A stretch of DNA of 64,000 nucleotides. It comes from Escherichia coli (GTDB lineage: Bacteria > Pseudomonadota > Gammaproteobacteria > Enterobacterales > Enterobacteriaceae). The stretch lies in assembly GCF_003019035.1 (NCBI RefSeq), contig NZ_CP027447.1; one strand, 5' to 3'. The position numbers were made by a program. This document shows positions 33,001 through 36,000 of this stretch, piece after piece. Position 1 is the first letter of the stretch. The number at the start of each line of letters is the position of its first letter.

Positions 33001-36000
33001 TATTAAAAACTCTTGAAGAGAAAAAACAGTATTACAATATGATCTACGAAGAAATCCGTAAAAAGAAAGCACAAAACGCATCATAACTCACCAAACAACC
33101 AGTCACCAGTTAAGATACTTCAAAAAAATTACCCACGGGTATTTACTTTTTAAATACCCGTGGGTATCCTTCCTTTCATACCAACCCACCCCGTCCCACA
33201 GAACGCAGGGCAATACTTCGAGTTACCAGGCAGTGGTCAGGGGGTAAGTAGCCAGCCCGAGGCGTAAGAACATGACGGCAGGGTTCAACTTTAACTATGC
33301 AGCAGGTTTTTGTTCCGCTACCCCGGCGTTAAGGGGAAATGAGGTCAACATGGATACTATCGATCTTGGCAACAACGAATCTCTGGTGTACGGCGTGTTT
33401 CCCAACCAGGACGGCACATTCACCGCGATGACGTATACCAAAAGCAAAACGTTTAAAACCGAAAATGGTGCCCGTCGCTGGCTGGAAAGAAACTCAGGTG
33501 AGTGATATGGATTTCGACACAATCATGGAAAAGGCTTACGAAGAATACTTCGAAGGCCTTGCCGAAGGCGAAGAAGCTCTCAGCTTCAGTGAGTTTAAAC
33601 AGGCGCTTTCCAGCTCGGCAAAATCTAACGGCTGATAAGCGAAGCAGCACCGCGAGGAATCAGTATGCAGAAACGAGAACCCGTCATCATCGCGCCAGAC
33701 TATACCGATGATGAACTTTATGAGTGGATGCGCCAGAAAATTAATGCAGCGCAGGATCTGAAATGGGCCAATGAAGCCAGGGCTAAGCAGGCTGAAAATC
33801 TGTCCGCTCTGGAGCAGGATATCACCAGGCTGGAAAAAGCAGCGGCATTAAGCATTGCCAGAATGATTACATACCCGCGTTAATAGCTAACCAACGAAGC
33901 TAAGGTTGGTAATTAAGGAGTTCTCCACGGGTGAGGTGGAGTGCGTGCGCCGGACACGGGTGAGCATCCGGCACTGACAGTTTACTGAAAGGATATTTCC
34001 ATGAAAAGTCAGACCATAACGCGAAAGCGCACGGCGAGGTAGCTGGTTCATAGATAGCCTGTCGTTAAATTTTCGTCGACCGTGCGCTTCCGGTTGTGGC
34101 ACTCCGCGAAATGGCGCGGCGGTAAGTATGGCGGGGTTATTCCTTCCCCGTTGAGGACACCGGGTTGTCAGGTTGACCATACTCTTAAGTGACACCCCCG
34201 CTGCAACGCCCTCTGTTATCAATTTTCTGGTGACGTTTGGCGGTATCAGTTTTACTCCGTGACTGCTCTGCCGCCCTTTTTAAAGTGAATTTTGTGATGC
34301 GGTGAATGCGGCTAAGCGCACGCGGAACAGTTAAAACCAAAAACAGTGTTATGGGTGGATTCTCTGTATCCGGCGTTAATTGTTAACTGGTTAACGTCAC
34401 CTGGAGGCACAAGGCACCGCATCACAAAACTCATTGTTGAGGGCGCGATAATGAAAACGTTATTACCAAACGTTAATACGTCTGAAGGTTGTTTTGAAAT
34501 TGGTGTCAGAATCAGTAACCCTGTATTTACTGAAGATGCCATTAACAAGAGAAAACACGAACGGGAGCTATTAAATAAAATATGCATTCTTTCAATGCTG
34601 GCCCGTTTACGTCCGACTCAAAAAGGATACTGGCAATGAATACCACATTTGAACTTGTTCTGACAGTTTTTCTTGTTTCCGGTGAACCGATTGACATGGT
34701 TACTGGCGTATACGGCTCAATGAAAGAATGCATGGCTGCCGCAGCGGAACAGAAAATTCCCGGTAACTGTTACCAGGTCGATAAAGTTATTCACCAGGAT
34801 AATAACGAAATCCCGGCAGGATTTTAAAACAGCACCGTAATAAATATCCAGTTTCATTCTTATATGCCAGCAATGGCAGGGATTTGTTCATCCTTAAATC
34901 TGTCATGAGGTTAAAACAAAATGAGTAAAGTCTTTATTTGCGCCGCTATTCCTGACGAACTGGCAACAAGGGAAGAAGGCGCTGTGGCTGTAGCCACAGC
35001 CATTGAAGCTGGCGACGAACGCCGCGCCCGTGCCAAATTTACCTGGCAATTCCTGGAGCAATATCCGGCTGCTCAGGACTGCGCTTATAAATTTCTTGTC
35101 TGCGAGGATAAACCCGGTATACCCCGCCCTGCCCTCGATTCCTGGGATGCTGAATATATGCAGGAAAACCGCTGGGATGAGGATTCTGCTTCTTTTGTTC
35201 CGGTTGAGAATGAATCCGATCCGATGAACGTCACTTTTGACAAGCTGGCCCCTGAAGTACAGAACGCTGTCATGGTTAAGTTCGACACATGTGAAAACAT
35301 CACCGTTGATATGGTTATTAGCGCACAGGAATTGTTGCAGGAAGACATGGCAACATTCGACGGACATATCGTTGAAGCGTTGATGAAAATGCCAGATGTT
35401 AACGCCATGTATCCGGAGCTTAAGCTGCATGCCATCGGGTGGGTTAAGCATAAATGTAAGCCTGGTGCCAAATGGCCCGAAATTCAGGCAGAGATGAGCA
35501 TCTGGAAAAAACGTCGCGAAGGTGAACGCAAGGAAACCGGAAAATACACGTCTGTTGTTGATCTCGCCCGCGCCAGAGCCAATCAACAGCACACTGAAAA
35601 CTCAGCAGAAAAAATCCCCCCTGTCACTGCAGTCATTCGTCGCGAATACAAGCAGACATGGAAAACACTGGATGATGAACTGGCCTACGCTCTCTGGCCT
35701 GGTGATGTGGATGCCGGAAACATTGACGGCAGCATCCATCGCTGGGCAAAAAATGAAGTTATCGACAACGACCGCGAAGACTGGAAGCGTATCTCGGCAT
35801 CAATGCGCAAACAGCCTGATGCCCTTCGCTACGACCGCCAGACTATTTTTGGCCTTGTTCGTGAACGTCCGATCGACATTCACAAAGACCCTGTGGCACT
35901 GAACAAATACATTACTGAATACCTGACTACAAAGGGCGTGTTTGAAGATGAAGGAAGAAATCAGAGCGCAACTGATACTCTCCCGTCGCCAGTACCAGAA

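Follow-up and report, generated by a model that had tools for sequence, protein, structure and literature searches.

The dicBF operon of the defective Qin prophage of Escherichia coli K-12 (ydfABC-dicF-dicB-ydfD-ydfE) encodes both a small RNA (sRNA), DicF, and an inhibitor of cell division, DicB, and is the natural point of comparison for the dicF-dicB-ydfD-like module analysed here, which lies in 64,000 nt of E. coli contig NZ_CP027447.1 (assembly GCF_003019035.1; hereafter the window). In K-12, a polycistronic transcript from 5' of ydfA is cut by RNase III to a species of ~190 nt that RNase E converts into the 53-nt DicF, of which the 3' end is its own terminator; read-through transcripts cover dicB-ydfD, and a 72-nt form made by RNase III also exists (PMC10448788, PMC5069750). 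The ftsZ, xylR, pykA and manX mRNAs are targets of DicF acting with Hfq, and division is blocked as a result (PMC5069750, PMC6832061). The DicB protein acts through MinC on the Z-ring, and its inhibition of ManYZ excludes lambda-like phages (PMC6832061). Lytic activity and inhibition of IspG are known for the K-12 YdfD protein only (PMC8835842). Copies of DicF in several O157:H7 prophages have been published (PMC5069750, PMC6832061), and a functional phage that carries dicBF exists (PMC10448788).

A sequence-only reading of the window had recognized DicF at position 34224, followed by dicB and a ydfD-like gene and preceded by ydfA/B/C-like genes, all on the early-left strand of a Shiga-toxin (Stx) prophage. 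These assignments held up in our analyses, and the K-12 functions that the reading quoted are as published. In particular, the window very probably carries a canonical Qin-type dicBF operon as the early-left (PL-type) operon of a Stx1d-converting lambdoid prophage beside serU. The module itself is already known, very common and in its usual genomic place; modestly new are two side points, namely the kinship of the DicF-dicB spacer with the STnc100 RNA family and a satellite-like element inside the prophage terminase gene.

Results

The window carries an intact dicBF-type operon

A search of the window with Rfam detected DicF (RF00039) at 34225-34276 (+) with 76.7 bits against a gathering score of 48 (E 3.6e-15), in a match that spans positions 1-52 of the 52 in the model and includes no non-canonical pairs. 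The 53-nt dicF of K-12 (NC_000913 1649382-1649434) aligned to the window with 53 of 53 positions identical (Table 1). Both published seed regions are unchanged because of this identity, and the 5' and 3' target-pairing regions are those of the experimentally characterised K-12 RNA. The gene lies between ydfC and dicB and ends in an intrinsic terminator, in which a hairpin (GGCGG...CCGCC) is followed by CUUUUU with the U-tract at 34277-34281. (Note that a promoter and terminator scan did not flag this terminator because its stem is interrupted.)

The protein-coding parts of the module were equally recognizable. DicB exceeded the cut-offs of both Pfam PF05358 (123.4 bits, cut-off 27, residues 1-62 of 62) and NCBIfam NF049927 (CellDivInhibDicB; 126.7 bits, cut-off 100), and is identical to K-12 DicB at 54 of 62 residues (87%), the genes being 92.1% identical at the nucleotide level. 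The product of the next gene matched Pfam DUF1482 (PF07358; 71.9 bits, cut-off 25) and keeps both conserved cysteines, C32 and C44 (cf. PMC8835842). The ATG of this ydfD-like gene overlaps the dicB stop codon (ATGA), an overlap by which the two genes are evidently translationally coupled. Its C-terminal residue is F where that of K-12 YdfD is L; in the K-12 protein, stepwise N- or C-terminal truncations (even ΔN1 and ΔC1) and the N1A and L63A substitutions reportedly weaken lysis (PMC8835842). Identical DicB and YdfD-like sequences are each found on 45 public contigs, and the interval 34224-34827 runs exactly from the 5' end of DicF to the stop codon of the ydfD-like gene.

Upstream of dicF lie ydfA, ydfB and ydfC, which are 98.1%, 99.2% and 98.2% identical to K-12 in nucleotide sequence, and the ydfA and ydfB proteins are identical to those of K-12 despite synonymous nucleotide differences. 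All five small open reading frames (ORFs; ydfA, ydfB, ydfC, dicB and the ydfD-like gene) are intact. The exonuclease gene further downstream is intact, whereas its K-12 equivalent, ydfE, is a pseudogene. From 5' to 3', the operon runs through ydfA, ydfB and ydfC, the leader of 340 nt, dicF, the structured spacer of 174 nt, dicB, the ydfD-like gene, exonuclease and int, and the genes from ydfA to the ydfD-like gene, the exonuclease gene and int are co-oriented, as expected of an early-left operon.

The prophage around the operon is of the Stx1d type. The stxA product (22075-23031, −) scored 734.5 bits as Stx1d A, and the stxB product (21796-22065, −) 205.4 bits as Stx1d B, against NCBIfam subtype cut-offs of 725 and 199.5, respectively. 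The two genes lie downstream of a Q antiterminator gene (24775-25146) and upstream of a lysis cassette with holin, lysozyme and Rz-like ORFs (19852-21511); a DnaT-domain replication gene, an HNH endonuclease gene and a small-terminase gene also occupy the strand opposite to the operon. At the other end, tRNA-Ser(CGA) (serU; 38732-38821, −) adjoins the integrase gene and is likely the attachment site. To the right of the prophage follow mtfA, tRNA-Asn, a P4-type integrase island, yeeJ, yeeL, shiA and amn, that is, the serU-asnT region of the E. coli chromosome.

Table 1 Features of the dicBF-type operon and the adjoining immunity region, in window coordinates
Feature	Position	Strand	Basis
YdaT-like gene	31877-32302	−	
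YdaS-like cro, divergent from repressor-like gene	32286-32567	−	
Operator-like palindromic boxes TACC-N4-GGTA, repressor/cro intergenic	32596-32607, 32635-32646; one-mismatch box 32620-32631		
Prophage repressor-like gene, 139 aa, transcriptional regulator	32667-33086	+	phrog_5736 (4.7e-70)
Perfect 37-nt palindrome from two boxes (33130-33141, 33155-33166), just 3' of repressor-like gene	33130-33166		
Candidate PL-type sigma-70 promoter, overlaps boxes	−35 TTTACT 33142-33147, 17-nt spacer, −10 TATCCT 33165-33170	+	By eye
Mosaic junction, start of K-12 Qin homology	33312-33349	+	K-12 alignment
ydfA (DUF1391), 51 aa, 51/51 identical to K-12	33350-33505	+	Pfam, K-12 alignment
ydfB, 42 aa, 42/42 identical to K-12	33507-33635	+	K-12 alignment
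ydfC, 72 aa, 71/72 identical to K-12	33665-33883	+	K-12 alignment
ydfC-dicF untranslated leader, 340 nt, 96.8% identical to K-12	33884-34223	+	
dicF sRNA, 53 nt, own terminator hairpin and U-tract	34224-34276	+	Rfam, K-12 alignment
DicF-dicB spacer, 174 nt, 96.6% identical to K-12	34277-34450	+	
dicB, 62 aa, cell-division inhibitor	34451-34639	+	Pfam, NCBIfam, K-12 alignment
ydfD-like DUF1482 gene, 63 aa	34636-34827	+	Pfam PF07358, K-12 alignment
Exonuclease, 823 aa, C-terminal Rv2179c-like 3'-5' exonuclease domain; next operon gene	34921-37392	+	
Prophage tyrosine integrase	37654-38679	+	

Operator-like boxes flank a repressor-like gene upstream of the operon

Homology to Qin (~97%) starts abruptly at 33312, 38 nt 5' of ydfA, and continues colinearly past 34940. 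Because it stops at this point, the promoter and operators of the operon are not those of dicBp. Directly 5' of the operon, and co-oriented with it, is a repressor-like gene of the phrog_5736 type. Exact TACC-N4-GGTA boxes occur four times in the 64 kb against 0.52 expected, a number that 0 of 100 shuffles reached, and all four flank the repressor-like gene, with two in the repressor/cro intergenic region and two directly 5' of the operon. We infer that the boxes within 32596-32646 and 33130-33166 are candidate OR and OL operators, respectively, in a lambda-like arrangement, and that the prophage's own repressor controls the dicBF-type operon. The palindrome formed by the second pair of boxes may double as the terminator of the repressor transcript. 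Since the repressor-like protein lacks an S24 peptidase domain, its sequence suggests induction of the antirepressor type rather than by RecA-dependent cleavage. A Rac-type repressor was considered and rejected, as the 'dicA' of phage Rac-SA53, an ORF of equal length, has no similarity to it.

The leader contains a predicted duplex at the expected RNase III site

In the ydfC-dicF leader, a predicted duplex (34025-34037 with 34076-34089) brackets the 5' end at ~34087 that RNase III would be expected to generate for the 190-nt DicF precursor; this end falls within the 3' strand of the duplex. A difference from K-12 opposite G34082 is a C to U change that keeps the pair. The folding z-scores, −2.65 for the leader and −1.2 for the 190-nt precursor, are not compelling, and an Rfam search of the leader at E up to 5 found no known RNA families.

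Part of the leader recurs elsewhere. A conserved, non-coding unit of ~120 nt (~34093-34215, +), to which no Rfam family matches, is found at 76-88% identity in P1, P7, the cdtI phage, Ayreon, 2H10, a Salmonella phage and twelve Stx2c phages. The counterpart in P1 is annotated as 'dicF-like region', and in the Stx2c phages the unit is followed by a different terminator hairpin without the DicF 5' seed. Two coding readings of the leader are unlikely. A 36-aa ORF on the plus strand (34082-34192) meets an in-frame stop, by eye, across the Stx2c alignment. A 111-aa ORF on the minus strand (33887-34222), the counterpart of which in E. coli JNEC-KY180 is called a hypothetical protein by the Prokaryotic Genome Annotation Pipeline, is probably spurious because the leader is only partly conserved in other phages and the region corresponds to a processed RNA leader.

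The DicF-dicB spacer is related to STnc100

At a relaxed Rfam threshold, the spacer (34288-34428) matched positions 21-154 of the 206 in the STnc100 model (RF02076) at 30.6 bits (E 2.6e-4) and thereby fell short of the gathering score (47). The two share the core of the family (GGUGAAU ... UCACCNGGAGGCACNNGGCACC), a covarying closing stem and an inner hairpin, and the 19-nt core TCAYCNGGAGGMACNNGGC occurs at only two sites in the window, the spacer and a true STnc100 copy. The spacer has a folding z-score of −4.3, and its closing stem is a perfect 15-bp duplex (34290-34304 with 34415-34429), which further pairing beyond a one-base bulge brings to ~20 bp. Across 65 distinct homologues the inner eight pairs of this stem are paired in 83-100%, and at four pairs 20-25 of the 65 sequences have changes on both sides. 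The observed paired fraction, 0.882, compares with a mean of 0.769 (maximum 0.80) when partners were shuffled and with 0.20 after a slide of one column; in addition, one pair of the inner hairpin covaries (GC in 49, UA in 15). Judged by these sequence and structural signals, the homology between the spacer and STnc100 is solid. The STnc100 model has a 3' terminator part that is missing from the spacer; the closing stem of the spacer is also much longer, and an ORF follows the spacer directly. The kinship of STnc100 with PasD has been published, in a report that does not mention DicF or dicB (bioRxiv 10.64898/2026.05.13.724894).

The full STnc100 copy in the window (62.8 bits; 21523-21715, −) lies between stxB and the holin gene. 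Publication of STnc100 downstream of stx2 in Stx2 phages (PMC12370729) places it 75 nt 3' of stx2, and the copy in this Stx1d phage is its counterpart.

Spacer-type elements also precede ORFs other than dicB. They are found before terB in P7 (43 bits) and before kil in Shigella phage 75/02 Stx, the Rac-type phages Rac-SA53 and vB_EcoS-683R6, and phiSTEC1589-Stx1c. A scan of viral contigs yielded 120 loci with 96 distinct elements, followed at a fixed short distance by ORFs of the dicB family (+35 nt, 18 distinct), kil (+40 nt, 10) or terB (+43 nt, 3), and by further small ORFs; canonical STnc100 copies have a holin gene ~100-140 nt downstream. Two viral contigs have DicF, an STnc100-like element, a small ORF, isrK and C4 in one row (L050, 9244-9717; L046, 1645-2065), an arrangement that connects the DicF cassette with an immI-like antisense-RNA immunity locus of the P1 type. 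Because DicF and the spacer are found together with different ORFs, including the isrK-C4 order in these two contigs, the cassette is modular.

We tentatively suggest, as a possibility that we rate below even, that the spacer is a hitherto unrecognised, terminator-less member of the STnc100/PasD family which, together with the DicF hairpin, forms a mobile 'sRNA and processing leader' cassette acting in cis. Phages would recombine this cassette ahead of ORFs for host takeover (dicB, kil, terB, small membrane peptides and immunity loci of the isrK-C4 type), and the extended ~20-bp closing stem would be an RNase III site at which the sRNA and the downstream mRNA come apart and which fixes the 5' end of this mRNA. 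The hypothesis of a cis-processing role follows from one coincidence: the published 3' end of the 72-nt DicF (PMC5069750) would correspond to 34295, a position within the closing stem's 5' arm. If correct, the STnc100 family may include cis-acting processing or insulator elements and not trans-acting sRNAs alone, and its kinship with the spacer could explain how RNase III uncouples the sRNA from toxic ORFs downstream.

A satellite-like element splits the large-terminase gene

The sequence-only reading described the module as sitting in an apparently otherwise complete prophage. This description does not stand, as the large-terminase gene (terL) is split by a 15.08-kb insertion (1571-16651; flanks 837-1570 and 16652-17672) and the far end of the prophage lies outside the window. 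The N-terminal part of terL is an ORF at 16479-17672 (−) that covers positions 169-448 of the PHROG profile, and the C-terminal part an ORF at 834-1559 (−) that covers positions 449-673. Joining 350 + 350 nt of the two flanks gives a 700-nt sequence that is contiguous, at 100% identity, in genes elsewhere annotated as 'terminase large subunit'; the joined sequence is present in 905 genomes at at least 80% coverage. To its left, the prophage continues beyond the window, and no second attachment-site copy was found: none of the 14-mers of the int/tRNA-Ser junction (38660-38900) recurs in the window. Hence the two attachment ends and intact morphogenesis genes expected of a complete prophage are not both present here. 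The other prophage genes that we inspected are intact (int, exonuclease, replication genes, Q, stx1d, lysis cassette, HNH and terS).

The insertion carries an integrase gene, a repressor-like ORF, primase/helicase, major capsid and portal protein genes and a complete terL of its own, and is flanked by imperfect 14-nt repeats (TTCGTGArAAwATT). In E. coli UMNF18, an element of the same type likewise interrupts terL in an HNH-cos prophage; the genes there are arranged as capsid, protease, portal, connector, HNH, terS and terL, plus int. This layout is, as far as the description in a preprint goes, that of phage-inducible chromosomal islands of the capsid-forming type, for which the same source gives six attachment sites (bioRxiv 10.1101/2022.09.08.507074). 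The insertion thus looks like a capsid-forming, satellite-like island of this kind, and such a satellite would reside in a packaging gene of its potential helper phage. Its position matters for the question of whether packaging of this Stx phage is possible at all.

Other loci of the prophage and its surroundings

Between Q and stx1d lies a gene for a CAAX/CPBP (Rce1-like) intramembrane protease (23806-24630, −), which is also found in the JNEC-KY180 prophage. Two small ORFs within 26916-27541 (+), opposite to their neighbours, resemble by eye a ParD-type antitoxin (106 aa) and a ParE/RelE-type toxin (99 aa). A second island (39948-49422) adjoins tRNA-Asn (39813-39888) and contains a P4-type integrase gene (39948-41312), an integrase-family gene (42628-43584, −), EFASI (43569-43697, −; 97.4 bits) and C4 antisense (45177-45264, −; 69.3 bits) RNAs and a gene for a 1259-aa RHS-repeat protein (45643-49422).

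The module is widespread in E. coli and its phages

Of 5426 complete E. coli genomes, 4769 (88%) matched the 1.9-kb dicBF region, 2101 of them with a coverage of 80% or more, and the median was two places per genome; RefSeq annotates ydfA/B/C, dicB and ydfD or DUF1482 in these genomes. In the phage collection, 58-60 records carry the module; they include mEp460_ev081, Tritos and HannyBb, which are isolated temperate phages, together with several vB_Eco phages. Among Stx2a 'phage' records of INPHARED, DicF matches were confined to a tandem PPompW prophage, and the Stx2c phages there have only the leader unit and the different hairpin. Sequences related to dicF in prophages were reportedly found to be widespread as early as 1994, going by the title of a paper by Faubladier and Bouché. 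With the module in most E. coli genomes, in isolated phages, in a sister Stx1d prophage and in O157:H7 prophages, the contrast with the defective Qin that the sequence-only reading implied is overstated. Because the Stx1d prophage of JNEC-KY180 has the same block, the presence of the module in a Stx prophage is thus, to judge from these sequences, the normal state of this phage lineage.

Discussion

The layout of the locus and the K-12 precedent suggest how the module may work. In the lysogen, the prophage's own repressor would act on the boxes that overlap the operon promoter, and derepression would give rise to a polycistronic RNA. RNase III would cut the leader duplex to release the ~190-nt precursor, as in the 97%-identical K-12 locus, and RNase E would trim this precursor to the 53-nt DicF, the 3' end of which would be set by its own intrinsic terminator. 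Together with Hfq, DicF would pair with the ftsZ, xylR, pykA and manX mRNAs and so block division. Transcripts that read past the DicF terminator would be cut by RNase III in the closing stem of the spacer, and the read-through RNA would be translated into DicB, which would block the Z-ring via MinC, inhibit ManYZ and exclude lambda-like phages, and into the YdfD-like protein, the K-12 counterpart of which inhibits IspG and lyses dividing cells. Consistent with this scheme, the two predicted RNase III positions, 34087 and 34295, are both inside predicted duplexes. Because a repressor gene of the prophage and operator-like boxes lie upstream, loss of repression in this prophage probably turns the module on. 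Derepression of the Stx1d prophage would then probably bring DicF/DicB division arrest and phage exclusion alongside toxin expression, an outcome to be expected of many lambdoid phages.

Several observations weigh against this account. The candidate PL promoter is weak, with 4/6 + 4/6 matches to the consensus, and its assignment is put forward as provisional because a consensus promoter scan flagged no PL promoter. The repressor-like protein resembles DicA in its C-terminal ~50 aa only, and a tblastn search of the window for Rem, DicA and DicC homologues returned just this 46-aa C-terminal similarity to DicA. For the duplex of DicF with K-12 ftsZ, a crude energy estimate gave −38.5 kcal/mol, whereas shuffles averaged −32.3; 36 of the 500 shuffles were as good, and the estimate does not discriminate. 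Eight of the 62 DicB residues differ from K-12, most of them among the last nine at the C-terminus. The YdfD-like protein is identical to the tested K-12 YdfD at 46 of 63 residues (73%; 81.8% in nucleotide sequence), and RefSeq names such variants 'DUF1482 family protein' and not 'lysis protein YdfD'; on this comparison the label 'lysis protein' should not be applied to it at present.

Alternatively, the main role of the module may be to benefit the lysogen, as a moron-like cassette whose expression is weak or restricted to a subpopulation and needs no prophage induction. It would then serve superinfection exclusion, through DicB and ManYZ, and the condition-dependent regulation of host or virulence genes, through DicF in stationary phase or at low oxygen. 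We consider this explanation rather unlikely but by no means negligible. In K-12, DicF builds up in stationary phase, and ~1% of cells show spontaneous firing of dicBp short of full induction (PMC10448788). DicB protects ~100-fold against lambda-type phages, and four DicF copies of O157:H7 are active under microaerobic conditions according to work cited there (PMC6832061). The same direction is indicated by the fact that 88% of complete E. coli genomes retain the module, frequently as more than one copy, and by the joining of the DicF-spacer cassette to varied cargo ORFs. However, the site of the module, behind operator-like boxes in a PL-equivalent operon with exonuclease and int, is an early lytic position, and benefit to the lysogen and a lytic role are not mutually exclusive.

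The split terL, together with a distal end, and hence tail genes, that lies outside the window, raises a different explanation, namely that the prophage is defective and that the module, as in Qin, is a toxic cassette that has become domesticated, with residual control by the repressor and no coupling to productive lysis at any time. We are doubtful of this explanation, although we give it some weight: every other gene that we inspected is intact, packaging is not needed for lysis and toxin release, and the insertion has its own integrase and imperfect 14-nt repeats, so that its excision could restore function, given that its precise removal restores a terL sequence identical to those found elsewhere. 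Finally, in the inner hairpin of the spacer (CCUGG-AGGCA-CAAGG) this copy, and this copy alone, has one structural pair broken by a G-A mismatch at A34411, which could be taken to mean that the module is an inert relic with sequence similarity and no function. That seems very improbable, as DicF is 100% conserved, the ydfA and ydfB proteins have stayed identical through synonymous changes, all ORFs are intact, the same protein variants recur across 45 contigs, and covariation maintains the RNA stems. We favour a dicBF-type operon that would be controlled by the prophage's own immunity region.

Comparison with known systems

With the dicBF operon of K-12 Qin, the locus shares gene order, orientation, leader and spacer. 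Qin, however, has control of the DicA/DicC/Rem type, whereas the window has an unrelated promoter and operator region, the phrog_5736 repressor and YdaS/YdaT-type neighbours. Moreover, ydfE and intQ are pseudogenes in K-12, the former overlapped by IS2, whereas the exonuclease and integrase genes of the window are intact. Phages mEp460_ev081, Tritos, HannyBb, vB_EcoS-689R5 and others carry the ydfC-dicF-dicB-ydfD-exonuclease block at 91-96% identity, but the immunity region of mEp460, unlike that of the window, is of the DicA/DicC/Rem type (PMC10448788). The sister Stx1d prophage of JNEC-KY180 shares the immunity region, the ydfABC-dicB-DUF1482-exonuclease block and the stx1d/Q/lysis region; it differs in its intact terL, in its integrase and in its insertion beside ompW.

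Division inhibitors in phage PL operons, such as lambda kil and Rac kilR, are textbook knowledge. Like the window, the lambda- and Rac-type phages (for example, Shigella phage 75/02 Stx and phiSTEC1589-Stx1c) have an FtsZ-directed division inhibitor in early-left position, but theirs is Kil and that of the window is DicB, a different protein. The likeness extends to the RNA, in that a DicF-like terminator hairpin and an STnc100-like spacer precede kil in Rac-type phages as they precede dicB in the window, although the DicF-like hairpin upstream of kil in phage 75/02 Stx misses E 0.1 for the Rfam DicF model.

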